DNA from: Vulcanimicrobiota bacterium
GTDB taxonomy: Bacteria; Vulcanimicrobiota; Xenobia; Xenobiales; JADMJV01
Length of the DNA: 64,000 nucleotides
Reading direction: 5' to 3'
Assembly (NCBI GenBank): GCA_017307785.1
Contig: JAFKGI010000028.1
Coordinates: 22,752 to 86,751, forward strand
Both the position numbers and the translations under genes were made by a program. Position 1 is the stretch's first letter. The number at the start of each line of letters is the position of its first letter. Shown one piece after another: positions 9,017 to 58,615 of the stretch. The notes beneath the pieces were generated by a model. The model ran no database searches. It worked only from the letters and a program-made list of their open reading frames with translations, and was not told where the DNA came from.

Positions 9017-9904
<888 letters not shown>

Positions 9905-9909
9905 CGTTT

Positions 9910-11457: not shown

Positions 11458-12452
11458 TACTTGCCTTCCTGTCTGCCCACCGCCAGCATACGCTCGACGG
11501 CGGTGCGAGCGCGCTCGGCCAGGGCCGGGTCGATCTCGACCGGGACCTGCATCGTTTCCAGGCTGCGCACAATCTTCTGCAGGGTGATCCGCTTCATGTG
11601 CGGACACAGGTTGCAGGGACGAACGAATTCGGTCTCGGGAAACTGGGAGACCAGATTGTCGCTCATCGAACATTCGGTGATGAGAGCCACCTTGACGGGG
11701 CGCTCGCGTCGCAGGAAGTCGACCATCCCGGCGGTGGAGCCGGACATGTCGGCTTCATCGCAGACTTCCGGCGGGCACTCGGGGTGAGCCACCAGGGTGA
11801 CGCCCGGGTAGTTGGCGCGAATCTCGCGCAGGTCGTCGGGGGTGAACTGTTCGTGGACTTCGCAGCTGCCCGGGTGGGTGATGATCTCCACGCCCGTTTC
11901 GCGAGCCACGTTGGCGGCCAGGTACTGGTCGGGGATGAAGATGACGCGGGGCACGCCCAGCGACTCGACCACCTTGAGGGCATTGCCCGAAGTGCAGCAG
12001 ATGTCGCTTTCGGCCTTGACCTCGGCGCTGGTGTTGACGTAAGTCACCACCGGCACGCCCGGATACTGAGCGCGCAACTTGCGCACGTCGGCGCCGGTGA
12101 TGGACTCGGCCAGTGAACAGCCGGCGCGGATGTCGGGAATGAGCACCGTCGCCTGCGGGCAGAGCAGCTTGGTGGTCTCGGCCATAAAGTGGACGCCGGC
12201 CATCACGATGACTTCGGCCGAGCTCTGAGCCGCCTGTTGGGCCAGGGCCAGCGAGTCACCGGTGAAGTCGGCCACGCCGTAATAAATTTCGGGGGTCTGG
12301 TAATTGTGGGCCAGAATGACGGCCTTCTTCTCGGCCTTCAACTGCCAGATGCGCTCGATCAGGGGGACCATGGTTGCCCACTCGACCGCGGGGATCTGGT
12401 GCTTCACGCGATCGTAGATTTGTTCAAGGTTCGGAGTGGTGATGGTGGGCAT
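11457..12452 (-). CDS. nadA: quinolinate synthase
   Basis: 331 aa with AHNYQ, VHFMAET, YVNTSA and CPHM-type motifs. SD GAGGT lies 8 nt upstream of the ATG. Confidence 0.9.
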   Translation of the reverse strand: MPTITTPNLEQIYDRVKHQIPAVEWATMVPLIERIWQLKAEKKAVILAHNYQTPEIYYGVADFTGDSLALAQQAAQSSAEVIVMAGVHFMAETTKLLCPQATVLIPDIRAGCSLAESITGADVRKLRAQYPGVPVVTYVNTSAEVKAESDICCTSGNALKVVESLGVPRVIFIPDQYLAANVARETGVEIITHPGSCEVHEQFTPDDLREIRANYPGVTLVAHPECPPEVCDEADMSGSTAGMVDFLRRERPVKVALITECSMSDNLVSQFPETEFVRPCNLCPHMKRITLQKIVRSLETMQVPVEIDPALAERARTAVERMLAVGRQEGK

Positions 12453-12505
12453 ATCGGATTACCTCGGCTTCTTATACTCAATCAGAGCATATCTTCTACC
12501 CGGTT

Positions 12506-12550
12506 ATCCTAACTTTGAGCATAAGGACTTGTCAACACTTTGAGCATAAG
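12506..12550 (-). promoter_or_regulatory. nadA promoter with flanking 14-bp direct-repeat operator candidates
   Basis: On the minus strand: perfect -35 TTGACA (plus 12530-12535), an 18-nt spacer, then TAGGAT (plus 12506-12511). The 14-mer CTTATGCTCAAAGT occurs twice (plus 12512-12525 and 12537-12550), bracketing the -35. Confidence 0.5.
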
Positions 12551-12555
12551 TTGGA

Positions 12556-14388
12556 CTAAATCTTTAGATCGGAAAGCGCCAGACAAGTCTGAGAGTAGAT
12601 CAGAGCCAGCGGAGTCAATTCCAGCTCGGGGCACTTCTGAAAGTCCTCGATGGCCTCCCGATGCCGGCCCAACCGCTGGCGCAACAGGCCTCGATTGAGC
12701 AGGTCCAGACTGCGTCCATCGCCTAACTCCACTACCAGATCCAGAGCGGCCAGGGCCAGTTGTGAGTCTCGAACATAGATGGCCCCGGCCAGAGCGCGCA
12801 AATTGGCCAACCTCGTGGAAATCATAAAAAGCGGCCAGAATCGGCTCTCACGGCCCAATCCCGGGCGGAGCCGCTCGGCGTCGGCCAGTTCCGAACGCAA
12901 GCACTCCACCTCCGTCCTCCCGGAACGGTCTTGGGGAAGCCACTCCCAACCCAGACGTCGCGGACTGGTCTCTCCGGGGAGTTCGTTGCGCAGCGTCGTA
13001 AAAACCGGCAACCCTCCCTCGTGAAAAGCCCGCGCCAGGTCTTCCACCTTGGGCCGACCCGCCGCGTAAGGCTGCACCCAGGCCGGCAGCCCACGCTGAA
13101 ACCAGAGGGCGCTATACAGCCCTTTGCAGACCACCGGCACCTCGGTTCGGTAGCCCTCAACTTGCTGGACATAGGCCAGAGCTCCCACCGGCAGATCACC
13201 GGTCACCACCAACAGAGAGCCGGGCTTGCAGTTGTCCAGCAACTGGCGGCCGTAGCTGGCCACCAGCTCGCGCCCGTCCAGCCGGCAGGCCGGCAGATTG
13301 CTGCGAAACTGCCACCCCAGCAACAGCGCCGCCAACAACAGCGCCCTTCGGGCTCCGATCCGGCGTGCCAGTTCGGCTGTCCCCAGTCCGGCCAGCAAAG
13401 CCAGTCCCAGGTAAGAACTGGCGTAGAAACGCTCCAGCATATCCAGGTGGAAGGTGTCGAGCCGTTGCCGCCCGATCAGCGCGAAAAAGGGTCCGAAGGC
13501 GATCAGCCAGCCCCAACCTAACCTCCACAAGCCCGCCTGGCGGCGCCCGCCCAGCAAACCGCCCCAGATGGCCAGCAGCACCCAGACCAGCGGAGCCTGC
13601 CGAGCGTAGGTGAAAAGCACGTAGGCGGCTCCGTGCACGACGCCGTGTTCCAGCCCATCGGGCTTGTTGGTCAGCCGGAACGTCCCGTAAGACCTGCGCA
13701 GAAAATGTCCCAGCACGTCATCGAAGCTGCGTAAGCCTCCCCAGTTCAGCCCCGGTTCGCCTTGAGCCCGCCACCACATGTCGGTATACAGGACCAGCGC
13801 CACCAGCACGGTGGCCGCCCAGGCAGGGGTCAGCAGCACGCGTCGCCAGTGTGGCCAGGCCATCCACAACAAGCCCGGCAGCGCCAGCACGAAAGTGTGA
13901 TGATGAGCCAACCCCAGGCCCAAACAGGCGTAAAAGGCCCACAACCAGCGTTTCTCCTCGGGGTGCTCCAGCACTCGCCATCCCAGCCAGCCCAGGCCCA
14001 TGGTGATGGCAAAATGCAGTCCGAAAACTTCGGCAATCACCGCCTGTCCCCACACCGAGCCTAAAAAGGCGAAGCCCAGTCCGGCCACCAGCGTAGCCGC
14101 TGCCGAACCGGTGGCGCGCCGCACCAGATCGGCCAGCAATCCGGCCGCCAGGGCCGTGCAGAAACCGCTGAACAAGTTGATGCGCCAACCATAGTCCCCA
14201 CCCCAAAGCCCACCCCAGAGGTGGGCCAGACGCACAAACAGCGGATACCCGGGCGGATGCGCCACCCCCAGGCAATAGGCCGCCACCGTCAACTCCCCAC
14301 TATCATGCCCCGGCCCCACCGAAGGCGCCGCCGTCCACCCAAAAACCCCAAAAGCCAGCAGAAAAACCAACACCGGCATCACGGGCAT
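12556..14388 (-). CDS. DUF2723 / TMEM260-like GT-C fold glycosyltransferase with C-terminal TPR-like region
   Basis: 610 aa. The N-terminal signature GHDSGELTVAAYCLGVAHPPGYPLF and a polytopic membrane body are typical of DUF2723 proteins. Confidence 0.8.
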   Translation of the reverse strand: MPVMPVLVFLLAFGVFGWTAAPSVGPGHDSGELTVAAYCLGVAHPPGYPLFVRLAHLWGGLWGGDYGWRINLFSGFCTALAAGLLADLVRRATGSAAATLVAGLGFAFLGSVWGQAVIAEVFGLHFAITMGLGWLGWRVLEHPEEKRWLWAFYACLGLGLAHHHTFVLALPGLLWMAWPHWRRVLLTPAWAATVLVALVLYTDMWWRAQGEPGLNWGGLRSFDDVLGHFLRRSYGTFRLTNKPDGLEHGVVHGAAYVLFTYARQAPLVWVLLAIWGGLLGGRRQAGLWRLGWGWLIAFGPFFALIGRQRLDTFHLDMLERFYASSYLGLALLAGLGTAELARRIGARRALLLAALLLGWQFRSNLPACRLDGRELVASYGRQLLDNCKPGSLLVVTGDLPVGALAYVQQVEGYRTEVPVVCKGLYSALWFQRGLPAWVQPYAAGRPKVEDLARAFHEGGLPVFTTLRNELPGETSPRRLGWEWLPQDRSGRTEVECLRSELADAERLRPGLGRESRFWPLFMISTRLANLRALAGAIYVRDSQLALAALDLVVELGDGRSLDLLNRGLLRQRLGRHREAIEDFQKCPELELTPLALIYSQTCLALSDLKI

Positions 14389-14400
14389 TGGTTCGGCCTA

Positions 14401-14548
14401 GAAGGGAAAGCGGGAAAGAAGGGAGAGCTGGAAAGAGCCCGGCCCATCGCGTTTTTTACGAAATAGGGACCCGACCACCCCTCAAAAAGGCTTGAGAAAG
14501 ACCCTCTCCCGCTCTCCAACCTTCCCACCTTTCCCTTCGGCAACCAGT
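14401..14548. repeat. dispersed-repeat copy (purine-rich arm ... pyrimidine-rich T arm) abutting the kinase stop codon
   Basis: GAAGGGAAAG (14401-14410) pairs with CTTTCCCTTC (14529-14538). The segment 14501-14548 (ctctcccgctctccaaccttcccacctttcccttcggcaaccagtc) matches 43851-43900 and 44071-44120. Confidence 0.6.
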
Positions 14549-16864
14549 CTAGGCGTTCAGGGGGAGGGCGACGATGAAGTGGGTGCCCTGGCCGGGTTGG
14601 GATTTGCAGCTGAGGGTGCCGCCGTGCTGTTGCACCAGTTCCAGCGAGGTGGACAGGCCCAGGCCGGTGCCCTCGCCGATAGCTTTGGTCGTGTAAAACG
14701 GATCGAAGATGCGCTGGCGGGTTTCCTCGCTCATGCCGCAGCCGTAGTCTTTGACGTGGATCAGGGCTTGCTCGTTGCGCTTCTCCAACCACATCTCGAT
14801 GCGCTTGAGCTGGGCTCCCGGCGTGCCACAAGCGTCCTTGGCGTTGATCAGCAGATTGCTGAAAACCTGCTGCAGCTCATTGGAATTGGCCTCGATCACG
14901 ACGGTGGGCCCGGGCGCGACCTCCACTTCCACTCCGGTCAGCTTCAGGGTGTGGGCCACCAGCTGGAAACTGTCGTCCATGACCTTGTGCAGGTCCACCC
15001 GGGAACGCATGCCGCGGCTGTCGCGACTGTAAGACAGTAGCTTGGAAATAATACCGCGCATCTGGTCGATGGATTCCAGAGCTTTCTCCAAACGCTTGCG
15101 CGACTTCTCGGGATTGTCGGCCACCGTCTCAATCGACAGCTCGACGGCAATCGATACGGCTCCCAACGGAGTATTCAATTCGTGGGCCACGCCGGCCGCC
15201 AGTTGACCGATGGCCGCCAGCTTGGAAGACTGAACCACCTGAGCTTGCGAAGTCTTTACCTGCTCCAAAGCCACGACCAGGCGCTTGTTCAGCTCGGCCC
15301 CTTCCAACAAGCAGGCAAACTGCACCGAGAACAGGCGCAGCAACTCGGTATCCACCAGCAGCAGCGGTTTGGGCGCATCGCCCAGCAGCAGCAGCTGGCC
15401 CTCCCCCATCGTGCCGGCCTGCAATCGGAAGGTGTAGCGCGGCGGATCCATAGCCAGGGCCCCGGATTTATACAGCTGCTCGCGCCAACGCACCTCCACC
15501 TGGAAGCCGGGAACCAGCTCGGGCAGGCGGCGCTGGGCCGTCTCCACCAACTCTTCCACGCTGCGACAAGAAACCAGCTGTCCCAAAAGATCCAGAGTAG
15601 CCGTCAGCCGGGTTGCCAGTTGATCCAGCTCGTAGCGCCGGGTCTGTTCGTCAGCCAGCACTCGCGACTGCATCTCGCGATAGCGAACCGCATCCAGACA
15701 CATCGGCAGATGGTGAGCCAGACGCAGCAATAGATGATGATGCGAAGGCTCCCAGCGCATCTGGGTATCGCTAACCACCAGCAGTCCTCGCTCGGGAATG
15801 TGCGCGGCCAGATGAAAAACCCCGTTCGCTTTGACCTCTTGGGCCTTGAAACGTTCATGGGCCATCTGCTCGAGCGACTCGCGGCCGGGCTCCAATTCGT
15901 CGGCACCAAAGCCGGCGGTGGCGCGTAACGTGCCATTCTCCAGCTCATAGAGAGTGATGCGGGCACAGGGGATGGCCCGGCGCACAAAGCTCAACAAGGC
16001 CGGGCGCAGATCGGCGGGCGACTGGATCAGAGCCGTCTCCATAAACAATTCGCCCACCAGCGTCAGCACCCGATGCTGCAGTTCCACTTCCAGACGCTGC
16101 ATCTCCACCTGGCTCTGCAGCCGCTGAAGTTCGCGACCAGCCCTCTCCTGGCGCCGCTCGGTGCGCGCCTGTTTGCGTCCCTCGCTCTCGGCCGCCAGCA
16201 CCTGAATCTGCGCCGCCACCGTCACCGTGAGCAGAGGTAAGGTCGCCAACAGCACCCCTACCGCCTCCGGATTGCGGGCCACCAGAGTCGAGAGCACTCC
16301 CCCCAGCACGCACAGAAACATCACGGCCGTGACGCTACGCTCACGCGCCAGCGTCCATAGCGAAAGCTGGCGGGCAGGCACGGCCTGAGCGAAAAGACCC
16401 GGAAGGAACTGCCAGGAAAGAAAATAGACCAGGGTGCATGCAAACGGGCGAGCCGACTCGGGCGTATTCCAGGCGGCCAGTCCGGCCCACAGTTCCGGAA
16501 GCCCATCGGAGAGCAGGCTCAGAGAGGATTCCGAACGGGAGCGAGCACGGATGAATCGGATCAAAAGGCCCGCTCCGAGCAACAGCAACCAGGGAGCTCG
16601 TCCCAAACTTACGCAGCCCACCGTCACCAGCAACGCGCTGGCGGACAGCGGGAAGCGCCCAAATCCCGCCAGTCTGGGCGCCAACCCTTCCGCCAGCAGG
16701 TAGCCCAGCAAGGGGGCCGCCAGGGGGAGTCCGTCCGCCTGGTTAGGAGGGACCGGCCCCATCCGCGCCAGGGCCAGGATCAAAGTCAAAACCAGAGCCG
16801 CCAACGGCACCATCGGTGTCGTTAAAACCTGATCTTCGTCTTCTTCCAACTCCAGATTCTTCAA
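14549..16864 (-). CDS. polytopic sensor histidine kinase (GAF-like repeats, HisKA, HATPase_c)
   Basis: 771 aa with multiple N-terminal TM helices. H-box AAGVAHELNTPLG; N and G boxes SNLLINAKDA and GTGLGLSTS. The TTG start overlaps the upstream stop (TTGA). Confidence 0.85.
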   Translation of the reverse strand: MKNLELEEDEDQVLTTPMVPLAALVLTLILALARMGPVPPNQADGLPLAAPLLGYLLAEGLAPRLAGFGRFPLSASALLVTVGCVSLGRAPWLLLLGAGLLIRFIRARSRSESSLSLLSDGLPELWAGLAAWNTPESARPFACTLVYFLSWQFLPGLFAQAVPARQLSLWTLARERSVTAVMFLCVLGGVLSTLVARNPEAVGVLLATLPLLTVTVAAQIQVLAAESEGRKQARTERRQERAGRELQRLQSQVEMQRLEVELQHRVLTLVGELFMETALIQSPADLRPALLSFVRRAIPCARITLYELENGTLRATAGFGADELEPGRESLEQMAHERFKAQEVKANGVFHLAAHIPERGLLVVSDTQMRWEPSHHHLLLRLAHHLPMCLDAVRYREMQSRVLADEQTRRYELDQLATRLTATLDLLGQLVSCRSVEELVETAQRRLPELVPGFQVEVRWREQLYKSGALAMDPPRYTFRLQAGTMGEGQLLLLGDAPKPLLLVDTELLRLFSVQFACLLEGAELNKRLVVALEQVKTSQAQVVQSSKLAAIGQLAAGVAHELNTPLGAVSIAVELSIETVADNPEKSRKRLEKALESIDQMRGIISKLLSYSRDSRGMRSRVDLHKVMDDSFQLVAHTLKLTGVEVEVAPGPTVVIEANSNELQQVFSNLLINAKDACGTPGAQLKRIEMWLEKRNEQALIHVKDYGCGMSEETRQRIFDPFYTTKAIGEGTGLGLSTSLELVQQHGGTLSCKSQPGQGTHFIVALPLNA

Positions 16865-17568
16865 CGGGCCGTCCGTGAAGGAATGGTCAGCACGGTGAAA
16901 AGCCTCAAGCGGCGGGCTCTCTGTTGTACGGGGGCATTGGGGTCGAGCGAGCGGCGACCGTCGGTGACCTGCAATCCGCCCTGCAGCTCTCCATCTTTTT
17001 TGACGGTGGCGGTGGCCACATTCAGGTGAATCGTGTTGCCCACCGCGGCGAAAGTCACTCGGTCCAGGCCTTGGGCCAGAACCTGAGGCCTGGCGGTAGG
17101 GTCAACTTCGGGGAGGTCGGCCGGACTGCCCGGATTGAGGCGCTCGAGCAATAGCTGCTGCTTGGTCAGATCATAGCGAATCCGGTATCGGTAAGTTCCG
17201 CCGCCGCGCCGATTGAGGTAGTTGGTGGTCGCCTCGGGTTGGCTGCTGAAGCGCGGATCCAGGTAATCACAGCAGGAAGCAAAGTCGAGGCAGTAGATGT
17301 TGGGAAACTGCGTATCGTTCTCATAGCATTCCGGCACGGGAGAGTAGATCGATTGGGCGTTCACGATGACCGGACTGACGGCCGAGGCCGCGAAAGCCAG
17401 GCTGTCTTCGACCGCCATTCGACTGCTCTGCCCCAGAAACACCTGACTGCTGCTCAGCTCGAACTGCCGGGTGGACCCGCGCAGCAGCAAAAACAGCCCG
17501 GCCAGCACGATGACGCTCAGGCCCAGAGAGAAGAGAATTTCCACCAGAGAAAAGCCGCGACGCATCAT
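16861..17568 (-). CDS. pseudopilin with prepilin-type N-terminal cleavage/methylation signal
   Basis: 235 aa from the ATG at 17568 (MMRRGFSLVEILFSLGLSVIVLAG; G|FSLVE with Glu5). ATGA overlap with the upstream gene. Confidence 0.75.
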   Translation of the reverse strand: MMRRGFSLVEILFSLGLSVIVLAGLFLLLRGSTRQFELSSSQVFLGQSSRMAVEDSLAFAASAVSPVIVNAQSIYSPVPECYENDTQFPNIYCLDFASCCDYLDPRFSSQPEATTNYLNRRGGGTYRYRIRYDLTKQQLLLERLNPGSPADLPEVDPTARPQVLAQGLDRVTFAAVGNTIHLNVATATVKKDGELQGGLQVTDGRRSLDPNAPVQQRARRLRLFTVLTIPSRTAR

Positions 17569-18068
17569 TCCTGCCGATACAATCCAGGAAAAGAACCGAC
17601 GCGCAAACCCAGGCGGTCTCTCCAACGCAGCTGCACATCGACGCTGTAGAGGCCCTCCATCGGTGAAGGCGGCGGACCCGGGTCGATGTAGGGCTGCACC
17701 ACAAATTTCACTTCAAACTGACGAGCCGACTCGCGAAACTGGGACGCTTCGGCAGCATCGGTGGTGAGCGTGAAGTCCGCCTCTTCAAAAGGCTTGACGA
17801 CTCCGTCCGGACCGTAAAGCGGCTGAAAAACTCCCGAGGTGTAGGCCGGATTGACCGCCCCCGCCAGATAAGCCGATTTGGGTCCCCCTCCCAGCATCAA
17901 TTCCAGAATCTTGCGCGCATAGGAGGTCGCTTCGGTGGACTGGGTGGTTCCTGCGGTGGCTTTCGTCGCATACGAAATGGCGCTCAAGGCAAAGATCACG
18001 CCGGTGGCCAGCAGCACCATGGCCACCAGGATCTCCACCACACTCAGCCCCAGACGACGAGACCTCAC
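17565..18068 (-). CDS. pseudopilin with prepilin-type N-terminal cleavage/methylation signal
   Basis: 167 aa (MRSRRLGLSVVEILVAMVLLATG; G|LSVVE with Glu5). GTGA overlap with the upstream gene. Confidence 0.8.
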   Translation of the reverse strand: MRSRRLGLSVVEILVAMVLLATGVIFALSAISYATKATAGTTQSTEATSYARKILELMLGGGPKSAYLAGAVNPAYTSGVFQPLYGPDGVVKPFEEADFTLTTDAAEASQFRESARQFEVKFVVQPYIDPGPPPSPMEGLYSVDVQLRWRDRLGLRVGSFPGLYRQE

Positions 18069-20479
18069 GGAGCCGTAATCCTATAAAAGGTCACGTCGAA
18101 GCGGCCGTCCGGAGGAAAAATAGGCGGCGGGCTGATGCTCAAGAAGTTGTCGTAGAGATAGCCGCTCGACCAGCCGCGGCCGCCCGTGATCAAGGGACCG
18201 ATGATTTTCTGCACCACGCCGCCTACGATCCGCACTTCACCCAGCGGCGGCGGCGAGAGGTTGGTCACGGCAAAACTGCCCTGGGCGGCGAAAAGCGAGG
18301 CGTAGAGATAGAGCGGGTGATCCGGGTCGGTGTGGCGGCTGATCAGATCGGCCCGGGCATCCAGGCTGATATTCGCGCCGATGACGCCCAGAGCGTGATC
18401 GCCCGTGCTGGGCAGGGCTGGCGGCAAGTTCTTGAATTGCAGGAGCTGGTCGGTGACGGTGACGTTGGCCAGGGCCGTCGGCTTGAGCCGGACGGGCGTC
18501 TCTGCATCGGCCGCAAAAATCGTCTTGGAGTCTCGGTTCACTCCCCTCAAAGAGTCGACTCGACCGTAGACGCCGACCACGCCACCCGGCACTCCGTCCA
18601 CCAGCTTGTAACTGAAAGTCCGACCCGTTTCGCGATCCTGATTCACCACCAGCGACTTCCCGCGAGGAATGAGGACATCGAGCGTATCGGTAGTGCCGCT
18701 GAAAATCGGAAACTGGTCCTGGGACGGCTGGTCCGACTGGCGGCGCGCCAAGAAATAGTTGACCGGGAAGCGCACCGGGCCGTCCACAGCCGAGACCACC
18801 GCGTCCTGGGGAGCGTAATGATGGGTCACGTCCTCGATGCCGGAGGTCGAGGAAAGAACCGGGTGGGGGCCGTCGCCGTCCACGGTCGTCACTTGCACAT
18901 ACTGCGTGCGCACCTCGGTCTTGGGCACGTCGATGGTGACGGTGGTAGCCGCGTAGAGGGGGATGACCACCGCGCCGCCGCTGCCCGCGTTAGCCGGACC
19001 CGCTCCACCGCCGCCGGGAGGGTCCGAGATGGTGGTGGAGCCGGTCTGCACGTAACGCATGACCTCGGCCGGCTCCGTCCCTACTGTTACCGTGTACTGG
19101 CCGGGAGAATAGCCCGGTTGCGGGGTGTCGGAAACCAGCGTGGTCTCCATGGTGTAGGGTCCGGTCTCGATGTTGGTCACTTCCCGGGTCACCGACTCCT
19201 GGGTGATATAGGTGACCTCTTTGAGCTGCTGCATCTGAACGACCTGATGACCCTCAGCAGCGCTGCCGGTGACCTGCAGCGAATCGTTGAAAACAGTCGA
19301 CCTACCGGTTCCGTCCACGACATCCAGTCGCAGCTCTCGCAACGCGCCGGTGGAGACAATGCCCAGATCGGTGGTGTTCACGAAGACGACATTCTTGGGC
19401 GCCGATTCCACCTCGACCTCTCGGCCCGCTTCGGAGCCCCAGGCGGCCGCCGCCAACCGCGACCAATCGCTGGGCAGCTCCAGCCGGGACGTGCGCTGAA
19501 TAGCGCCCTGTCCCTGGCGAAAGAGCCGTTTGTAACGGCTTTCCACGCCTCGATAGGGCTGTTCACTGCCGGTGTAGGGCCGAAAGTCGGAGGAAGACCC
19601 CCGGAAGTTGCCCCCCAGGTAGGCGACCCCGTCGTGGCTGTCGGGCGCTTTGGGCGGCGGCAGCAGATCGCCCGCAAAGGAGAGTTCCGCCGCGAAGGGA
19701 GCCGGAAAGCCCGTCTGCTCCCAGAAAGACTGCCCGCCGGCGACCTCGATGACGGGTGTATCGTTGGAATGCACCGGGCCGGCAAAAATCGGCGTGGGCA
19801 GCGAGTTCTTCACGCGAAAAGCGGTGGTGTTGGCTCCCTCATCCTTCCAGCGGTCCACAAAGTAGGCATAGCGGGCATAGGTGCGTTCCACCATCGAGCT
19901 TTCCGCCCGCAGTACGTAATTCTCGCCGGAGGAAGTATCGCAAACGCCGTTGTCATTGATGTCTCGAAAGGCCACCGAAACGATGGTGTAGCAGGGAGGC
20001 AGACGACCCGCCTTGCCGCCTAAAAAGGGATGGGGACTGGTGTTCTTGTCAGGGAAAACCCAGACTTCCGCCTTCCAATCTTCGCCTAACCGAATTCGCC
20101 CGGGACGGCTGTGCAGGGCGGGAATATTGGCGGGAAAGTAGGTGTCGAGCTTCTGGCCGTTGTCGATGGCCGGAAGCAGCCGCAGGGGAGACTGGTCAGG
20201 CCGACTGACCTGGATCACTTCGTAGGGGTCGGCGGGGCCCGTTCTCAAGAAAGGATCGGTTTCCCCCGCGCCCCCGGTGCGCACTCGACGCAAGTAGGAG
20301 AGAGCGTGCTTGACCCCTCCGGTGCAGGCGTAATAAGCGAAGGTCTCGCGGCGATGGTCACCGGTCCAGCGAACTTCTTGAGGAACCAGGCGAAACAAGG
20401 AAGCGATCAGCAAAATGATCACCACCATGATGAAAAACACCGCCGCCAGAACAAATCCCCTGTATCGTCTAGGCTTCAT
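18065..20479 (-). CDS. large (804 aa) GspK/PilX-like minor-pilin/tip protein candidate
   Basis: The N-terminal anchor MKPRRYRGFVLAAVFFIMVVIILLIASLF resembles PilX_N/GspK and lacks Glu5. It sits between the platform protein and the pseudopilins. I could not assign the remainder of the protein. Confidence 0.6.
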   Translation of the reverse strand: MKPRRYRGFVLAAVFFIMVVIILLIASLFRLVPQEVRWTGDHRRETFAYYACTGGVKHALSYLRRVRTGGAGETDPFLRTGPADPYEVIQVSRPDQSPLRLLPAIDNGQKLDTYFPANIPALHSRPGRIRLGEDWKAEVWVFPDKNTSPHPFLGGKAGRLPPCYTIVSVAFRDINDNGVCDTSSGENYVLRAESSMVERTYARYAYFVDRWKDEGANTTAFRVKNSLPTPIFAGPVHSNDTPVIEVAGGQSFWEQTGFPAPFAAELSFAGDLLPPPKAPDSHDGVAYLGGNFRGSSSDFRPYTGSEQPYRGVESRYKRLFRQGQGAIQRTSRLELPSDWSRLAAAAWGSEAGREVEVESAPKNVVFVNTTDLGIVSTGALRELRLDVVDGTGRSTVFNDSLQVTGSAAEGHQVVQMQQLKEVTYITQESVTREVTNIETGPYTMETTLVSDTPQPGYSPGQYTVTVGTEPAEVMRYVQTGSTTISDPPGGGGAGPANAGSGGAVVIPLYAATTVTIDVPKTEVRTQYVQVTTVDGDGPHPVLSSTSGIEDVTHHYAPQDAVVSAVDGPVRFPVNYFLARRQSDQPSQDQFPIFSGTTDTLDVLIPRGKSLVVNQDRETGRTFSYKLVDGVPGGVVGVYGRVDSLRGVNRDSKTIFAADAETPVRLKPTALANVTVTDQLLQFKNLPPALPSTGDHALGVIGANISLDARADLISRHTDPDHPLYLYASLFAAQGSFAVTNLSPPPLGEVRIVGGVVQKIIGPLITGGRGWSSGYLYDNFLSISPPPIFPPDGRFDVTFYRITAP

Positions 20480-20482
20480 GGT

Positions 20483-21703
20483 TCACACCCCGTTCAGCAT
20501 CTGGTAGAGCGGCAGAAACATCGCGATCACAATGTAACCCACGATTCCTCCCATCACGCCGATCATCAACGGCTCCAACGCAGACATGAGAGTATTCAAG
20601 AGCAAATCAATCTCTTCCTCGAGCATCTCGGCCAGATGCTTATAGGACAGACTCAATTGCCCGGTTTCTTCTCCCAGTTCGGTAAAGCCGACCACGATGG
20701 CGGGAAAGGCCTCGCTGTGCCGCAAAAGGTCAGAAAAGGACTCCCCCTCCTCCACTCCGGCCACAATCTTGTCGATGGCTCGAGACATCTCGTAGTCGGC
20801 CAGCACCATATCGGTCAGCTCAAGGCTGTGGACCAGACCGATGCCACAAGCGCTGAGCGCCCCCATCGTGCGACTGAAGCGAGCCGCGCTGGCAGCCCGC
20901 AGCACCTGACTGACTCCGGGAATGCGCCGCAAAATCCACTGCAGCCGATAGCGTCCGCCCGCAGTCCGGAAATAGTGAGCAGAAAACAGCAGCGAGAGGA
21001 CCAGGGCGGGTAGCAAGATGTGGTAAAACCAGGCGGAATTCAGCAGATTGCCCACCAGCACGACGCTCTTGGTGATCCATGGCAGATCGGTGCCGGTTTC
21101 TTTGAAGACTCCGTTGATCAGCGTGGGCAGCACCTTTTGCGTCAGCAGCAACACCGCCAGACAGCAAATGAGAAACACGAAGGCGGGATACACCAGGGCC
21201 GAGCTCAGCTTCTGACGCAGGCGCAGCTCTCGTTCCAGATGGTCGGCCAGAGAATTGAGGTTGGCGACCAGGCCCCCGCTGCTCTCGCCCGCCTTGACCA
21301 GGCCGATAAAGACCGGCGAAAAAACGAGCGGATGGCGCCCCATGGCGCGGCTCAGAGAAAACCCCTTACTGACGCGATCGGACAAATCGGTCCAGGCCAG
21401 ATTGAGGCGCGGACCATAGTCGGCCATCTGCAGAACGTCCAACGAGCGCACCACATCGATGCCCGAATTCAGCATCACCGCCAATTGCCGGGTGGCCAGC
21501 GCCAGATCGAGCAGCCTGGGCGGGGCCAACAAGCGCAGCCGCGTCACCCAGGAGCTCAAATCGCGTTCCGGTCGTAATTGAGCCCATTCGAGACCGCGCT
21601 TGGACAGAATCAGGCGAGCGTCGTGTTCGTTGGCAGCTTCCACCGTACCGCTGACCAGCGACCCCCGCTCGACACTCTGAGCCGAATAAAAATACCGTTT
21701 CAA
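20483..21703 (-). CDS. type II secretion / type IV pilus platform protein (GspF/PilC family)
   Basis: 406 aa with two T2SSF-like repeats (LATRQLAVMLNSGIDVVRSL ...; FSRTMGALSACGIGLVHSL ...) and three TM segments. The TTG start overlaps the upstream stop (TTGA). Confidence 0.9.
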   Translation of the reverse strand: MKRYFYSAQSVERGSLVSGTVEAANEHDARLILSKRGLEWAQLRPERDLSSWVTRLRLLAPPRLLDLALATRQLAVMLNSGIDVVRSLDVLQMADYGPRLNLAWTDLSDRVSKGFSLSRAMGRHPLVFSPVFIGLVKAGESSGGLVANLNSLADHLERELRLRQKLSSALVYPAFVFLICCLAVLLLTQKVLPTLINGVFKETGTDLPWITKSVVLVGNLLNSAWFYHILLPALVLSLLFSAHYFRTAGGRYRLQWILRRIPGVSQVLRAASAARFSRTMGALSACGIGLVHSLELTDMVLADYEMSRAIDKIVAGVEEGESFSDLLRHSEAFPAIVVGFTELGEETGQLSLSYKHLAEMLEEEIDLLLNTLMSALEPLMIGVMGGIVGYIVIAMFLPLYQMLNGV

Positions 21704-22590
21704 CCAGTAAGCCCTCGGTAAAGCTCCTGCACTTTGACGCTCAACTCGGCCTGGCGCCTCGGCTCCGACCTCACCAGCAGCAACTGCACCAGCTCTTCCA
21801 GGCCAATCTCACCGGCCTGCACCTTGTCGACCACCGTGCCGAAGCCGGGCCTGGACACCTGGCCGGGTTGACGCGCGGCGGCACTGGCAACGTGTCCAGT
21901 CTTCTCGTAGTAACCGATGCGTTCGAAGATCTTGCGATAGGCGGCGCCCACCGACTGGACCGCCGCTTCGGTGGGCTGCTCGGTCAACCGAGCCGACATT
22001 TGCTCCAAACGCTCCAGCTGATCCCAGGTGTCCAGAGCCGCCGACTTGCTGATGGACTTGGAGCGCAAAGCCACAAAAAACCCCTGCAGCACCTTCTGCT
22101 TCTCCTGCTCGAGCAAGACCACCAACTGGGCCACTCGGCGGGTGTTGCTTTTTTCCATGAGACGCAACGGAGCCGACAGAAGATTGCGTAGCCCGAGCAG
22201 CGGAGCCAGAATGCCGTTGCGTCGATGAAGAGTGCGACGGACCACGTCCAGCATGGCCGGCACGCGGAAAGGCTTGTGCACATAGTCGTCCACCTGCAGT
22301 TCGATGGCCCGGCGCGGGCAGTCATCGCTGGCATAGCCCGTGATCATGACCACTTTGACCTTGGGCTGATACTTCTTGATGGCCGCAATGGCGCCTAATC
22401 CATCGGTGGGTCCGGCCATGCGAATGTCAGAAATCACCAGCTCGAAGGGAATCTTCGAGGACATTTCCACGGCCAATTCCGGCCGGCCGGCACCGCGCGC
22501 TTCATAGCCGGCGCCTTCCAACGCTTCGCACAGCAATTCCAGCATGATGGAATCGTCTTCCAAAACGAGAATGCGCGCAGCGGAACTCAT
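21700..22590 (-). CDS. response-regulator receiver protein with unassigned C-terminal domain
   Basis: 296 aa. REC signature: ILVLEDD, phospho-acceptor in ELVISDIRMAG, and VVMITGY...K. The ~170-aa C-terminal region has no motif I recognise. Confidence 0.85.
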   Translation of the reverse strand: MSSAARILVLEDDSIMLELLCEALEGAGYEARGAGRPELAVEMSSKIPFELVISDIRMAGPTDGLGAIAAIKKYQPKVKVVMITGYASDDCPRRAIELQVDDYVHKPFRVPAMLDVVRRTLHRRNGILAPLLGLRNLLSAPLRLMEKSNTRRVAQLVVLLEQEKQKVLQGFFVALRSKSISKSAALDTWDQLERLEQMSARLTEQPTEAAVQSVGAAYRKIFERIGYYEKTGHVASAAARQPGQVSRPGFGTVVDKVQAGEIGLEELVQLLLVRSEPRRQAELSVKVQELYRGLTG

Positions 22591-22628
22591 GGGCGGATGC
22601 TCTTCACCGCCCTTGTTCTACGAGCCTT

Positions 22629-24839
22629 TTAGATGGAGAGCTTGGCTCTGTGATAAAGCGACAACAATTCGATGCTGGGCTCCATCTCCAGTTCCGTCTT
22701 GAGCACGCGTTGACCGCGTTCGAAGAGGCGCACCGCCTGCTCGGGCCGGCCACTGGCCAGATAGGCCTGCATGCCCAGGCGGTAAGCCTCCTGGTTACAG
22801 CGATCCAGCTGCAGAATGCGAGTGGAGCACTCCAGCACCTGGTCGTGATTTTGACTCTCTTCCGCCAACTGGCAAAGCCGATTGAGCGACTCGAGCACCG
22901 ACTGCTCCAGGCCGCTGCGCGTGCTCACGGCCCATTCCAGATAGCAAGCTTCCAGGAAGGGCCCGGTGTAGAGCTCCACCACCTTGGTCAAATGCAGCCG
23001 CTCGAAAGGCTCCCCCTTGGACTGGCGAGCACGCTGCACGGCGTCCTGCAAATCGCGGGCATCCAGCACCACCTTGCACTCGGGATGAATGCGCGTGCCT
23101 TTGCCCTCGCGCACGATGTATTCAAAACCGTCACCGGCTTCGCCGCCGCGCAAGGCCGAGCGCAGAGTAGCGCGCAGGGCGTTCAGGTTGGCTTTGTTGG
23201 CGTGCTCCTGGCCGGGCCAGAGCTCCTCGATGAGAACTTCATCGGTGTAGCTGCGCTGCGGATCCAAGGCCAGGCGGAAGAGCAGCAGCTTGGCCTTCTG
23301 GTTGCGCTTCCAGGCCGGCTCGGCCAGGGGCCGTCCATCCACGAAGAACTCCATCTTACCCAGGCCGAACAGGCGCAGACTGTGACCGGTCGGCAAGGTG
23401 GCCAGCTCGGCCGCCGGCTCGCTGCCGGACTCCTGGTAGCCCATAGCTTTGAGAAACTCGGCGTCGCTGTTACGCTGACACAGTTCCTTGACCAACGGCT
23501 GCACCTTGGGATCACGTAGAAAGCGCTGGGCTCGTCCGGGCGAACTGGAGACCAGCGCGGTCAGCAGCGGATAAATTTCCTGGGCGCCGCGAGCGGCCTG
23601 GGAGTGCACCAGGGCCGGCAACAGCCAGTAGCCCTGTTCCACCAGATCACGCGGGGTCAAGGCCAGGTGAGCTTCGCGCAGGCTCGCTCCCAGCGGAACG
23701 GCTTCGAAGAATAAAGATTCGGCCAGGGCCGCCAGACTGACGCGGGTGGACATCCCCAGGCCGTCGCAAATTTTCTTGCCCTCGGCCAGCCAGCCGCGAG
23801 CTTCCTCGGCCTTGACGAGAGCCAGCAGAATACCGGCTTCCACCACCACTTCGGCCTGCGCCATGGGGCCCACCGAGCGAGCCAGGGTGTAGGCCTGACG
23901 GGCCAGATCGCGCGCCTGCTCGGCTTTGCCGGACTTCCAGGCCACCCGGCCCGCGCCCAGCGAAGCCAGCACGGCTTCGCGATTGACGCCCGACTGGGAA
24001 AGCTCGGCCAGAGCCACCGAAGCGTTCTCCCAGTCGCCGGCTGCCTCCAAAGAAAGCGCCACATGCAGCATGCCGCGACGCGAAGCGTAGTCATCCGAAG
24101 CTTCCCGTGCTTGTTCCGGAGCCACACTCGACTGAGCCAGCCGCTGGGCGGCCTCCATCACCTGACGGGCTTCAGGATTGACGTTGGCCTCGACGCCCAA
24201 CTCCAGCAGCGCCTTCACGGAATCCGGCAGGCTGGAGCTGACGAAAGCGGGGAGCGCGTCGGGAGCGGTTTTGTTCAGGGCGAACAAGATGGTGGCCAGA
24301 CTCAGCGACTCGACTTCTTCTTCGGGCAAGCCCAACTGGCGACCGAGCGTAATGGCCCACTTGCCCGACTCCTGCACCCAGGAGGCCCGCGTCAGGCGGC
24401 TTTCGCCCAAAAACATCTTGAGCGCCCACATCAAGGTGGCGCGTAGAGCGCGTTCGCGTGCGCGCTCGCGCTCGTCCACCTTGGTCCGTTCCAATTGGCG
24501 TTTGACCGCCTGGAGTAGCTCGGAAAGACGGAAAGGCTTCTTCAGATACTCGCCCACGCCGATTTGCATCGCCTTCAGCGTTTCCGCTTCCGAAGCGTAG
24601 CCGGTCACGACGATGCTCTTGGTATCGGGATTGAGGGCCTTGACTTCTTCCAGGGCCTGCAGACCGTCAGTGCCGGGCATGCGAATGTCGGTAACGACCA
24701 GATCGAACGACTGCTGACGAGCCTTCTGCAGTGCGTCCTCGCCGTTGCGGGCGGTGACCACTTCATACTCGTACTCGGTCAGTGCCTCACGGAACACCTC
24801 CAGAGCCGTTTCATCGTCTTCCACTAACAAGATTCGCAC
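22629..24839 (-). CDS. response regulator with central helical-repeat region and C-terminal SARP-type (winged-helix + BTAD) output
   Basis: 736 aa from GTG 24839, with SD GGAGGG 6 nt upstream. REC signature: ILLVEDDE, DLVVTDIRMPG, VVTGY. The C-terminus has an OmpR-like wHTH (LRLFGLGKMEFFVDGRPL...WKRNQKAKLLLFRLAL) followed by a BTAD-like helical domain (QEAYRLGMQAYLASGRPEQAVRLFERGQRVLKTELEMEPS). The 908-aa ORF extension is spurious. Confidence 0.8.
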   Translation of the reverse strand: MRILLVEDDETALEVFREALTEYEYEVVTARNGEDALQKARQQSFDLVVTDIRMPGTDGLQALEEVKALNPDTKSIVVTGYASEAETLKAMQIGVGEYLKKPFRLSELLQAVKRQLERTKVDERERARERALRATLMWALKMFLGESRLTRASWVQESGKWAITLGRQLGLPEEEVESLSLATILFALNKTAPDALPAFVSSSLPDSVKALLELGVEANVNPEARQVMEAAQRLAQSSVAPEQAREASDDYASRRGMLHVALSLEAAGDWENASVALAELSQSGVNREAVLASLGAGRVAWKSGKAEQARDLARQAYTLARSVGPMAQAEVVVEAGILLALVKAEEARGWLAEGKKICDGLGMSTRVSLAALAESLFFEAVPLGASLREAHLALTPRDLVEQGYWLLPALVHSQAARGAQEIYPLLTALVSSSPGRAQRFLRDPKVQPLVKELCQRNSDAEFLKAMGYQESGSEPAAELATLPTGHSLRLFGLGKMEFFVDGRPLAEPAWKRNQKAKLLLFRLALDPQRSYTDEVLIEELWPGQEHANKANLNALRATLRSALRGGEAGDGFEYIVREGKGTRIHPECKVVLDARDLQDAVQRARQSKGEPFERLHLTKVVELYTGPFLEACYLEWAVSTRSGLEQSVLESLNRLCQLAEESQNHDQVLECSTRILQLDRCNQEAYRLGMQAYLASGRPEQAVRLFERGQRVLKTELEMEPSIELLSLYHRAKLSI

Positions 24840-24923
24840 GACAGACCCTCCAAAGCAGTCCGCGTTCGCCCCTGCCCCCTTCGGCCCCTTGAGGGAGGCT
24901 GTGCAGGAGGGTGCTCCCCTGAC

Positions 24924-24952
24924 TTGAAAAAGTACCCCCGAATTCGTAAGTC
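24924..24952 (+). promoter_or_regulatory. putative sigma70-type promoter for the 24972 gene
   Basis: TTGAAA (24924-24929), a 17-nt spacer, then TAAGTC (24947-24952), in the divergent intergenic region. Confidence 0.3.
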
Positions 24953-24971
24953 TTGATTTTGTAGGAGTATC

Positions 24972-25418
24972 ATGAAAACTCGCTGGTTTCTCGCACTTTC
25001 GGCGGCCGCCGTGGCCTTGCTGATGAATCTGACGCCCGTCAACGCTCTCGGTGGCGCTGGCCAGGAACCGGACACCGCCGGTGAGACCGTGCGCAAAATC
25101 AAGATGCTGCCGCTCGAAGAAAAAGATACCCACACCTACGGTTGGGTTCGCATCAGCGCTGACGCGCTCACGCTGGGAGCCAACCACCTCTCGCCCGACA
25201 ACTTCTACACGGTGTACTTCGAGAACGGGGCCGACAAGCAGACTCTGGGCGAAGAACCGACCCTGCGCACCAGCGCCGTCGGCGAAGCCAAATACACCCT
25301 GCGTTTGACCGAGCCCCTGGGCGCCAAGTGGAGCAAAATCGTGCTCTACCAGCACACCGATGGCAAAGAGGACCTGAGCGGCGAAATGAAGCCGGTCATG
25401 GAGGCAAAATTACGCTAA
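24972..25418 (+). CDS. small secreted protein, unknown function
   Basis: 148 aa with signal peptide MKTRWFLALSAAAVALLMNLTPVNA. SD TAGGAG lies upstream. Confidence 0.7.
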   Translation: MKTRWFLALSAAAVALLMNLTPVNALGGAGQEPDTAGETVRKIKMLPLEEKDTHTYGWVRISADALTLGANHLSPDNFYTVYFENGADKQTLGEEPTLRTSAVGEAKYTLRLTEPLGAKWSKIVLYQHTDGKEDLSGEMKPVMEAKLR

Positions 25419-26269
25419 ACCCGGACTGGCAGACGGCACTCGACGAGGAAGAACGCAAAGAATACCAGCGCACCCAGGATTGGATCCAGGCTCCCGAAGG
25501 CTTGCTCGGTAAGAGCATGGGTCTGCTGGGCAAACCCGTGGACCTTGCCTACAAGCTCGTTCCCGAGGCCCTCAAAGAGCGCATCAGCCAGGCTCTTTAC
25601 CAGGTGCTTCTGCAAGTGCGCGATCATTCGCGCGACACGGTCCGCCGCCAGGCCCTCTACGACAGCATTTCGCAGAAAGTCGGTATCGACGTCAGCGACA
25701 GTCGGAACCTGGCCCGTCAGCCTCTGAAAGTGCTGGACCGGGCCGCTAACAAAGTGCTCTCGGCCCACCGCCAGCTGGCCGTGGTGCAGGGCGGTGTCAC
25801 CGGCGCCGCCGGCCTGCCCGGACTGGTGGCTGACGTCCCCTCTCTCTACTTCCTGGTCTTCCGTTGCGTCGAAGAGATCGCTTGCTGCTACGGCTTCCCG
25901 GCCGATTCCGAAGAGGAGCGAGACCTGGTACTCAAGGTCGTCGACATCGGTCACTTCCTGGAAAGCGGCAACAAGCGCAAAGGGATGCTGGAAATCGAGT
26001 CCATGGACGACATGCTGCGGCGTGGCGCTCCCGTGAAGGACCTGGAGCGCACGGTGGTGGCCAAGAGCCTGCAGACCCTATCGCGCCAGCTCAGCAGCCG
26101 CCTGGTGCAACGCAAGCTGGCTCAGACCTTGATGATCGTAGGAGCCGTGATCGGTGCCGGCGTCAATGCCGCGCTGGTCTCCGATGTCGGCACGACCGCC
26201 TTCCACGCTTACCGTCTGCGCCGCCTGCGCCAGACCGCCGAGCAGCGCCAGGAGCGTCAGACTCCCTGA
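25409..26269 (+). CDS. EcsC-family protein (start codon uncertain)
   Basis: EcsC-like body (...GKPVDLAYKLVPEALKERI..., GLPGLVADVPSLYFLVFRCVEEIACCYG, C-terminal TM). The longest ORF starts at GTG 25328, but its first 27 codons are R-rich and overlap the upstream gene by 91 nt. An in-frame ATT at 25409 follows a GGAGG (25400-25404). Confidence 0.65.
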   Translation: MTLNPDWQTALDEEERKEYQRTQDWIQAPEGLLGKSMGLLGKPVDLAYKLVPEALKERISQALYQVLLQVRDHSRDTVRRQALYDSISQKVGIDVSDSRNLARQPLKVLDRAANKVLSAHRQLAVVQGGVTGAAGLPGLVADVPSLYFLVFRCVEEIACCYGFPADSEEERDLVLKVVDIGHFLESGNKRKGMLEIESMDDMLRRGAPVKDLERTVVAKSLQTLSRQLSSRLVQRKLAQTLMIVGAVIGAGVNAALVSDVGTTAFHAYRLRRLRQTAEQRQERQTP

Positions 26270-26736
26270 AGATCGGGCTGCTCTCGGACACTCACGGTCA
26301 TTTCGATCCCGCCTGGCACGAAGTATTGGGCGATTGCGATGAAATCTGGCACGCCGGTGACATTGGCAGTCTCGAGGTGAGCGACGGCCTCAAAGCCTGG
26401 GCTCCGCTGGTAGCCTGTTACGGCAACATCGACGATGCGGCCGTGCGCGCCCAGTATCCCGAACACGTCCACTTCGAGCGCGAGGGAGTGAAGATCTGGC
26501 TGACCCACATCCTCACTCCCCAGGTCAAAAAGCAGCTCAAAAGCGTGCAACCCGATCTCCTGATCTTCGGCCATTCCCACATTGTCAAAGCCGACCGCGA
26601 CAAGTTGGGCGTCTTCCATCTCAACCCCGGCGCTTGCGGCCGCCAGGGAATCCACCTGGTGAAAACCATGGTGACCTTCGAAGTTCAAGATCGGCGAATC
26701 AGCGCGATGCGAATCCACAACCTGGGAGCCAGGTAA
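26266..26736 (+). CDS. YfcE/MJ0936-type metallophosphoesterase (CTG start proposed)
   Basis: The sequence LKIGLLSDTHGHFD...HAGD...GNID...GHSH carries the full metallophosphoesterase motif set. There is no ATG, GTG or TTG between the motif-I region and the upstream gene. The CTG at 26266 overlaps the EcsC stop as CTGA. Confidence 0.7.
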   Translation: MKIGLLSDTHGHFDPAWHEVLGDCDEIWHAGDIGSLEVSDGLKAWAPLVACYGNIDDAAVRAQYPEHVHFEREGVKIWLTHILTPQVKKQLKSVQPDLLIFGHSHIVKADRDKLGVFHLNPGACGRQGIHLVKTMVTFEVQDRRISAMRIHNLGAR

Positions 26737-39484: not shown

Positions 39485-39493
39485 GAACGGATC

Positions 39494-45915: not shown

Positions 45916-46488
45916 ATGACGCAGGTGAGCTCAGACCCAGACCGCTCCGCGTCCGACCAGCCGGAAATCAAACCGCTGGAAACCTGGATCCGTCAATTGC
46001 AATCCGGTCAGTCCGATGCCCTGGAGCCGCTGATCGAGCACACCCAAGGACGCGCCTGGCAAATCGCCTATGCCATCCTGCAAAATCGCCAGGAGGTCGA
46101 GGACGCGCTCCAAGACGCCTACCTGCTGGTCTACCAGAACATTGCCCAACTGCGCGAACCCAAAGCCTTCTGGGGGTGGTTCAAGCGCATCCTGGTAAAT
46201 CGCTGCCTGCGCCTGCACAAACGTGCCGCCACCGCCGAGTTACCAGAAGAAGCCTCGGTCCCACCCGAGGCCAGCGAAGTTCGCCTCGACATTCACGACG
46301 CCTTCGCCAAACTCTCCCTCAGCGACCGCACCGTGCTCGGTCTGCGCGAGGTGCTCGATTACACCTACGAAGAAATCTCCCAGTTGCTGGAAGTGCCGCT
46401 CACTACCGTAAAGATGCGCCTCTACAATGCCCGCAACCGCTTCTGCAAGTTCTTTGCCCGGGACATCAAAGGAGACAACAAGCGATGA
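45916..46488 (+). CDS. ECF (group 4) sigma-70 family RNA polymerase sigma factor
   Basis: 190 aa with region 2 (DALQDAYLLVYQNIAQLREPKAFWGWFKRILVNRC) and region 4 (LREVLDYTYEEISQLLEVPLTTVKMRLYNAR). Confidence 0.9.
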   Translation: MTQVSSDPDRSASDQPEIKPLETWIRQLQSGQSDALEPLIEHTQGRAWQIAYAILQNRQEVEDALQDAYLLVYQNIAQLREPKAFWGWFKRILVNRCLRLHKRAATAELPEEASVPPEASEVRLDIHDAFAKLSLSDRTVLGLREVLDYTYEEISQLLEVPLTTVKMRLYNARNRFCKFFARDIKGDNKR

Positions 46489-58612: not shown

Positions 58613-58615
58613 GGC

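Follow-up and report, generated by a model that had tools for sequence, protein, structure and literature searches.

Does a platform protein that is encoded together with pilin-like proteins, receivers and a sensor kinase, with no motor ATPase gene beside it, belong to a filament machine of a new kind, or to a machine whose other genes lie elsewhere? This question is raised by a row of genes in a stretch of DNA from an uncultured Vulcanimicrobiota bacterium of the soil type (assembly GCA_017307785.1, contig JAFKGI010000028.1), which is 64 kb long, has a G+C content of approximately 62% and is referred to below as the window. Its nearest protein relatives are found in metagenome-assembled genomes (MAGs) labelled Candidatus Eremiobacteraeota or Vulcanimicrobiota. 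An initial annotation, made from the DNA letters, had described the row as an ATPase-less operon whose layout it did not know from described systems, resembling type IV filament or type II secretion system (T2SS) genes. In our analysis the block is not a new machine but a variant, specific to its lineage, of regulated type IV pilus modules of a known kind. More specifically, and with moderate confidence, we consider it to be an Eremiobacterota-specific, two-component-regulated priming or tip module of a type IV pilus, which supplies a platform and obtains the motor and the outer parts from elsewhere.

Composition and conservation of the block

Eight genes (Table 1) are colinear in at least eight loci of Eremiobacterota (Vulcanimicrobiota), namely L001–L003 and L014–L018, with protein identities of 51–96%; L014–L018 are five GTDB species representatives found via an alignment of the platform protein, and all relatives were read with 10-kb flanks. 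Conservation of the gene order in relatives, on which the initial annotation had made its proposal depend, was therefore found. L017 is the most distant of these loci; here identity amounts to 74% for the response regulator REC-SARP (a receiver, REC, with a SARP-type output), 67% for REC-X (a receiver with an unclassified C-domain), 64% for the platform protein, 59 and 62% for the two pseudopilins, 57% for the kinase, 52% for the 804-aa pilin-like protein, which is among the fastest-evolving of the block, and 51% for the GT-C glycosyltransferase. This locus lies on a contig of 354 kb (CAZYPN010000001.1; approximately 62% G+C) which carries the full eight-gene block and the label "uncultured Burkholderiales", which is probably wrong.

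The flanks are also kept in the orthologous loci, with nadA-nadB-nadC on one side and, on the other, genes for a divergently encoded 148-aa protein, EcsC and a metallophosphatase. The gene for the 148-aa protein, which is of the secreted type and may belong to the system, begins 132 nt from the REC-SARP start and is found at the same position in eight of eight orthologous loci (62–96% identity). Because both the order and the flanking genes are conserved in the lineage, the block is a stable unit; its interpretation as a piece of a standard gsp/pil cluster was rejected, the conserved flanks being without pil genes.

The initial annotation had counted seven genes on the minus strand. All seven open reading frames (ORFs) were found where it had placed them, and the five junctions were reproduced exactly: a TTGA overlap between the genes of REC-X and the platform protein, a 3-nt gap between those of the platform and the 804-aa protein, a GTGA overlap with the gene of the 167-aa pseudopilin, an ATGA overlap between the two pseudopilin genes, and a TTGA overlap with the kinase gene. 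The operon-like unit is real, and its gene count had to be raised by one: the eighth gene, downstream, encodes the GT-C glycosyltransferase and is colinear with the block in every orthologous locus. In the window it is separated from the kinase gene by 160 nt; in L001 the same two genes overlap by 4 nt. The second pseudopilin does have the class III signal ascribed to it, but not the length of 254 aa (16861–17625). Its start is placed at 17568 (MMRRG/FSLVE) because this yields the ATGA junction and, with 235 aa, the length that is also found in the orthologues. The stop codon of REC-SARP and the start codon of REC-X are 38 nt apart (22591–22628, minus strand). Within this spacer is a GGGCGG...CCGCCC hairpin; it runs up to the ATG and, since a T-run is absent, looks like a translational or processing element rather than a terminator. 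Promoter and terminator scans over 12000–26500 gave chance level only.

Platform homologues with 34–51% identity lead to rearranged clusters (L004, L005, L007, L008 and L019). A core of REC-X, T2SSF-type platform and GAF kinase is retained in L004 and L008, and parts of it elsewhere, namely platform and GAF kinase in L007 and L019 (kinase convergent) and REC-X and platform in L098 and L099. The order in L008 is REC-X, T2SSF, GAF kinase, REC-BTAD, a second REC-X and pilin-like genes. That in L004 is a 642-aa PilX-like protein plus two pseudopilins, PilZ, REC-X, a second triplet, T2SSF, a polytopic GAF kinase, a PilX-like protein and a T2SSE-like protein; the triplet of PilX-like protein, small pilin and medium pilin recurs here, and the proteins in the PilX position give full-length, sub-threshold matches to PilX_N (E 0.0017 and 0.017). 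The rearranged clusters appear to be from the same phylum, since the L004 platform is 57% identical to that of an NCBI Eremiobacteraeota MAG. In L005, whose platform is 51% identical, the GT-C gene still abuts the platform gene, with two pseudopilin homologues and a kinase nearby. The product of a 653-aa gene of this locus was considered as a PilX-like homologue and rejected, being a polytopic membrane protein.

Table 1. Coordinates of the block, of its divergent neighbour and of related genes in other loci
Gene product	Locus	Position	Strand	Characteristics
REC-SARP response regulator, 736 aa	window	22629..24839	−	Pfam Response_reg, BTAD
REC-X, 296 aa	window	21700..22590	−	Response_reg plus unclassified helical C-domain of ~170 aa
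PilC/GspF-family inner-membrane platform, 406 aa	window	20483..21703	−	Pfam T2SSF, two stretches
804-aa pilin-like protein	window	18065..20479	−	N-terminal anchor without Glu5; no family match
167-aa pseudopilin	window	17565..18068	−	class III signal RLG/LSVVE
235-aa pseudopilin	window	16861..17568	−	class III signal RRG/FSLVE
Polytopic sensor histidine kinase, 771 aa	window	14549..16864	−	HisKA plus HATPase_c
GT-C glycosyltransferase (TMEM260-like/PMT_2)	window	12556..14388	−	C-terminal tetratricopeptide repeats (TPR); Pfam
Divergent 148-aa protein	window	24972..25418	+	signal peptide; conserved neighbour
cNMP_binding-MshEN-T2SSE protein	L004	16403..18301		
cNMP_binding-MshEN-T2SSE protein	L009	10001..11953		
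cNMP_binding-MshEN-T2SSE protein	L010	10001..11878		
cNMP_binding-MshEN-T2SSE protein	L174	5713..7653		
cNMP_binding-MshEN-T2SSE protein	L174	10001..11914		
Orphan T2SSF protein	L011	1540..2808		
Orphan T2SSF protein	L012	10001..11281		
Orphan T2SSF protein	L013	8147..9427		

Around the block, nadC, nadB and nadA (quinolinate phosphoribosyltransferase, L-aspartate oxidase and quinolinate synthase) lie directly downstream of the GT-C gene at 9017–12452 on the minus strand, and part of a complex I (nuo) operon at 53869–63799, likewise on the minus strand, encodes NuoG, NuoH, NuoI, NuoL and a NuoM/N-type subunit, all of it ordinary housekeeping content. Five further ORFs of 378–1100 aa (27535–28671, 28708–30624, 39068–40417, 44127–45422 and 46176–49478) have a coding-like G+C content at third codon positions and no Pfam match at E<=1; the first two of them are conserved beside the block in L001.

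The proteins of the block

The platform protein is full length and matches Pfam T2SSF (2.2e-49) in two stretches, corresponding to both T2SSF domains, which bears out its assignment to the GspF/PilC family. Its orthologues are 60–96% identical and are found only in Eremiobacterota-type MAGs; the nearest platforms beyond the phylum carry a PilC annotation. The protein stays under all NCBIfam equivalog cutoffs, with 274.9 bits vs 424 for GspF (TIGR02120) and 243 vs 700 for Thermus PilC.

The 804-aa protein starts with a hydrophobic anchor (RG/FVLAA) without Glu5, followed by a second helix and then by large beta-rich domains. Searches of Pfam, of NCBIfam and, with a profile, of the PDB sequences gave no match. 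The family comprises 24 orthologue clusters (49–100% identity), all from Eremiobacterota/Vulcanimicrobiota-type MAGs, and approximately 366 remote relatives of 500–1050 aa that were found in a profile search of 1.8 billion representatives; ten of ten relatives scanned are without Pfam annotation. In all six members that were read, an "RG[SA]-hydrophobic" anchor is followed by an "AYYAA-AG" helix and by two modules, one central and one C-terminal; the anchor is, as judged from its sequence, PilX_N-like. An AlphaFold2 model (predicted local distance difference test, pLDDT, 72) contains helices at 3–31 and 40–67, beta-rich domains and long hairpins of low confidence. The only likeness that Foldseek brought up was that of long beta-hairpins to the stems of pore-forming toxins (template modelling score <0.1). 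In the initial annotation the protein had been credited with a GspK/PilX-like anchor; the lack of Glu5 was confirmed, a profile match of the protein itself was not obtained, and Foldseek did not relate it to any characterised family of another kind. It is proposed to be the tip subunit in the PilX/GspK position or an adhesin.

The two class III signals that had been reported (G/LSVVE and G/FSLVE) were both recovered by a motif scan, which found no further class III pilin in the 64 kb. The 167-aa pseudopilin, whose orthologues are 59–90% identical, gives weak N-terminal matches to the NCBIfam models of PilV (5e-7) and XpsI (2e-5); by position and size it is GspI/PilV-like, and it could be the main filament subunit. 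The 235-aa pseudopilin, GspJ/PilW-like by position, matches N_methyl (9e-4), and its profile weakly matches the N-terminus of the pilin-like protein TTHA1219 from Thermus (E 0.018).

The kinase has about 7–8 hydrophobic segments in residues 1–225, as estimated from hydropathy, followed by a coiled coil, two divergent GAF-like domains, HisKA (1.6e-13) and HATPase_c (2e-24); H561 and the N and G boxes are invariant. It had been described as a GAF-containing kinase with a polytopic N-terminus. The N-terminus and the kinase domains were as described, and GAF in the window protein is under Pfam detection (GAF_3, E=0.055) and is deduced from homologues: these have tandem GAF domains, with Pfam GAF matches of up to 2.3e-14 in four of five aligned members, and the family profile matches GAF chains in the PDB. 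The glycosyltransferase matches TMEM260-like (PF11028) with 3.8e-25 (89.1 bits vs 24.2) and PMT_2 with 9.9e-7 (29.5 vs 26.1).

These data also bear on the strongest of the other explanations, that the block is a T2SS-like pseudopilus module in which the platform and a GspK-I-J-like tip would cooperate with GspE and GspD from other loci in a two-component-controlled export of substrates through the outer membrane. Among the NCBIfam models the platform does score best on GspF (275 bits), the small pseudopilin weakly matches XpsI/GspI, a large subunit without Glu5 followed by two small ones resembles GspK-I-J, and the kinase partially matches the NCBIfam model "T2SS_HK" (150 bits, cutoff 450). 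However, the GspF score is far under the equivalog cutoff, the PilC annotation of the nearest platforms outside the phylum points the other way, and none of GspC, L, M, D, E or G is found in the 64-kb window. In addition, Vulcanimicrobium alpinus, the only cultured member of the phylum, is reported to have type IV pili and phototaxis, a T2SS not being listed (PMC9758169). On this evidence we regard a secretion module as unlikely.

The two receiver proteins differ in their outputs, which are BTAD in REC-SARP and the unclassified domain in REC-X. In REC-SARP the receiver (Response_reg 1.8e-29) is followed by approximately 370 aa of a helical, TPR-like region and then by the SARP-type output (BTAD, PF03704, 1.2e-15, 58.6 bits vs a cutoff of 22.1). 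An OmpR-like winged helix-turn-helix before BTAD is weak (Trans_reg_C at residues 517–566, 16.5 bits vs a cutoff of 26.2). The GTG start at 24839 fits the orthologue lengths of 735–736 aa. With 74–96% identity REC-SARP is encoded by the most conserved gene of the block, and it is probably the transcriptional activator of the operon. An output of the NtrC type (sigma-54 AAA+ domain, Fis helix-turn-helix) was not found in either protein, both matching NtrC-family models over the receiver only.

REC-X matches Response_reg (2.3e-19) and no other Pfam family. In six homologues the phospho-acceptor residues D12, D13, D55, T84 and K106 are invariant, as are Q169, V173, R176 and S177 of the C-domain, for which searches of Pfam and the PDB found no relative. 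The earlier description of a receiver protein with an unassignable C-terminal domain of about 170 aa therefore stands, no characterised family having been matched. A metagenome scan with the REC-X alignment yielded few full-length homologues, and all those with enough flank are located at most 6 kb from a T2SSF gene, which makes the REC-X/T2SSF pairing the most robust signature of the system.

Source of the motor

On the absence of other machinery from the window, Pfam, the motif scan and a T2SSE hidden Markov model (HMM) agree with the initial annotation. None of the 48 window ORFs, 39 of them beyond the block, has a Pfam match to T2SSE, secretin, A24 prepilin peptidase or PilMNO. The T2SSE HMM, which was built for this analysis and which as a positive control recognized 77 ORFs in other loci, mostly PilB beside PilC from other phyla, found no match in the window or in L001–L003, L005–L008 and L011–L019. 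Within 10 kb of the block there is no ATPase, secretin or peptidase gene in any orthologous locus.

The ATPase-less machine that these findings had seemed to imply is not upheld, since dispersed pilus genes are usual in the phylum. In V. alpinus, for example, pilB-pilT-pilC are grouped at one locus, pilM, pilD and pilQ at a second, and a Tad locus is present as well (PMC9758169). In other Eremiobacterota MAGs (L011–L013) an orphan T2SSF gene is flanked by secA and a peptidase M14 gene, and pilus genes are absent from its surroundings; a lead (P0056/P0314) that was followed as a canonical PilC with PilB in the phylum proved to be such an orphan. From the separate loci in V. alpinus and from the orphan genes we conclude that dispersal is the normal state.

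This conclusion has to be weighed against the possibility that the block specifies a type IV filament of a new, self-sufficient class, in which phosphorylated REC-X gates assembly and a non-canonical partner, such as a cyclic-nucleotide-binding T2SSE-like protein with a degenerate Walker A motif, takes the place of PilB. REC-X, with its novel domain, is consistently near T2SSF, no ATPase gene is near any orthologous block, and the related cluster in L004 adjoins a gene whose product combines the domains cNMP_binding, MshEN and T2SSE. The family to which this product belongs consists of 18 clusters, 17 of which are without the Walker A lysine, having Arg or Leu instead. It is found in lower-GC relatives only and not in the lineage of the window, and in other genomes its genes lie away from T2SSF, together with genes for a CHASE2 cyclase, a CRP-like regulator, PilZ or REC-BTAD. 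The proteins are probably pseudo-ATPases acting as regulators. Because the family is tiny, has a degenerate Walker A motif and is encoded at other places in other genomes, the gene beside the L004 cluster does not identify the motor, and as partner ATPase in the lineage of the window its product was rejected. Moreover, the missing genes could simply be located elsewhere, and to our knowledge all type IV filaments require an active hexameric ATPase. A new filament class is therefore, in our opinion, very unlikely.

Known counterparts and proposed mode of action

Platform and pilin genes that adjoin those of a two-component system are not without precedent. In Myxococcus and Geobacter the gene order is pilB-pilT-pilC-pilS-pilR-pilA, the platform gene adjoining the kinase gene. 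In Pseudomonas, PilS-PilR is encoded with pilA and pilBCD (PMC6058289). As in the block, genes of a polytopic kinase and a response regulator adjoin platform and pilin genes. PilR, however, is an NtrC-type sigma-54 activator, whereas the block lacks an AAA+ domain and adjacent ATPase genes and has a second receiver protein, whose gene is coupled to that of the platform.

The likeness to the fimS-algR locus of Pseudomonas aeruginosa is of another kind. There the two-component system is located beside the minor-pilin operon fimU-pilVWXY1Y2E, which it controls (PMC5979040), and pilins feed back on the kinase, as they do on PilS (PMC5979040; PMC6058289). Both loci have two-component genes beside a minor-pilin/tip set with a PilX-type subunit lacking Glu5 and a large tip protein, which in the block is putative. 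They differ in that REC-SARP and REC-X are found in the block instead of a LytTR regulator, that its kinase combines GAF-like domains with complete ATP-binding boxes, and that its operon includes a PilC-type platform and a GT-C enzyme, a PilY1-type propeller not being detected. The block does contain, as the initial annotation said, a platform and a minor-pilin set with their own regulators (three pilin-like proteins, a kinase and two receivers), but the layout is not unprecedented, two-component wiring of pili being already known from FimS-AlgR with fimU-pilVWXY1E (PMC5979040) and from PilS-PilR (PMC6058289).

With GspK-I-J and PilX-V-W the block shares one large subunit without Glu5 and two small class III subunits that are encoded together. 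In contrast to these, the 804-aa protein is several times larger and is without a T2SSK, PilX_N or structural match, and neither a fourth subunit of the GspH/FimU type nor a major subunit is evident. Regulators of the CheY type are also known to act on the pilus motor, for example the cyanobacterial PATAN-REC proteins, which bind PilB1/PilC, and PilG/PilH. REC-X would resemble them as a single-receiver protein that is genetically tied to the pilus base and may control assembly post-translationally; its C-domain is unrelated to PATAN and sits after the receiver rather than before it. Pilin glycosylation by GT-C enzymes is known from TfpW and PglL/TfpO, and accessory pilin-modifying proteins have been reviewed (PMC11841053). 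The polytopic glycosyltransferase of the block, like TfpW and PglL/TfpO, is encoded in linkage with pilin genes, but belongs to a TMEM260/PMT-like family, and its targets are putative.

New in this comparison are the parts, which are the SARP-type regulator, the novel receiver protein, the GAF kinase, the giant PilX-like family without known fold and the TMEM260-like glycosyltransferase, and the presence of a platform gene within a minor-pilin operon without an adjoining ATPase gene. The block is neither a complete type IVa pilus or T2SS locus nor PilSR proper, and it is most like a regulated minor-pilin module.

How such a module could work can be outlined as follows. The priming-complex logic of GspK-I-J and PilX-V-W is established. 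By analogy, the triplet of large Glu5-less, small and medium subunit would form a complex on the co-encoded platform, prime filament assembly and end up at the tip, where the 804-aa protein, large and fast-evolving, may be exposed as an adhesin or receptor-binding subunit. In the periplasm, the GT-C enzyme may O-glycosylate the pilin-like proteins. Input to the kinase would be the pool of membrane-held pilins, as for PilS and FimS, or else a ligand of its GAF-like domains, and the kinase would phosphorylate both receivers. Of these, REC-SARP would activate transcription of the operon, and REC-X, synthesized in parallel with the platform, would directly switch assembly on or off at the platform or the motor. 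Other loci of the genome would provide the extension ATPase, the prepilin peptidase, the secretin, the alignment proteins and, probably, the major pilin.

The regulatory half of this scheme could also be taken for the whole, the block being mainly a sensing device in which platform-like and pilin-like proteins are inputs to the kinase, the output is gene regulation by REC-SARP, and no distinct filament is made. The regulators are encoded by the most conserved genes, and the gene of the polytopic kinase overlaps a pilin gene, the two being co-translated. Pilin-dependent signalling via PleC is reportedly a further precedent, beside those for control of kinases by pilins within the membrane (PMC6058289; PMC5979040). 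A full-length, conserved platform with both T2SSF domains, however, suggests a structural product, as do the large secreted-type 804-aa protein and the glycosyltransferase, and we give sensing as the main function little credence. Hardly more can be said for a competence (DNA-uptake) pilus module like Thermus pilA1-3/comZ/pilA4 or Com with the 804-aa protein as DNA receptor at the tip, a poor prospect in spite of the weak TTHA1219 match of the 235-aa pseudopilin, the 243 bits on the Thermus PilC model and a large pilin-like protein among small ones that recalls ComZ, as Foldseek returned neither ComZ nor any DNA receptor, ComGB and ComGE scores are low, and genes of the comEA/comEC type were not seen in the window.

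It should be noted that several observations weigh against a priming or tip module of a type IV pilus. For the platform, the GspF model yields a slightly better score than do those of PilC, which bears on the choice between a pilus and a secretion pseudopilus. In what was read, the 64 kb and the 10-kb flanks in relatives, ATPase, peptidase, secretin and major pilin are not shown for the genome of the window. The 804-aa protein itself has no match to PilX_N (PF14341), T2SSK or GspK, and Foldseek of its model against PDB and BFVD gave nothing at E<=1e-3. Its central region, with 23–26% Ser/Thr vs 15% overall, is only mildly enriched, and the enrichment was dropped as an argument for glycosylation, being too mild alone. 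The roles of REC-X and of the GT-C enzyme are assigned solely from gene linkage, and a single-sequence model of REC-X was unusable (pLDDT 45).

The regulated priming or tip module that we favour could be extended to a filament subtype of the Eremiobacterota's own, in which REC-X binds the platform and makes priming dependent on phosphorylation, a giant glycosylated PilX-like protein forms the tip, and in some lineages a cyclic-nucleotide-binding T2SSE-like protein without the Walker A lysine replaces or modulates the motor. We consider this extension improbable as a whole. If true, it would mean that a two-component system controls pilus assembly directly at the platform, in addition to transcription, and an action of REC-X on the platform, if it exists, would offer a simple example of filament assembly gated by phosphorylation. 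Three unannotated families are defined by the block, namely a platform-linked response regulator, a giant PilX-like, putative tip protein and a pilin-linked TMEM260-like glycosyltransferase. Poor soils and cold deserts are rich in Eremiobacterota, and the operon is a concrete, conserved candidate for the regulation and specialisation of pili in this phylum.

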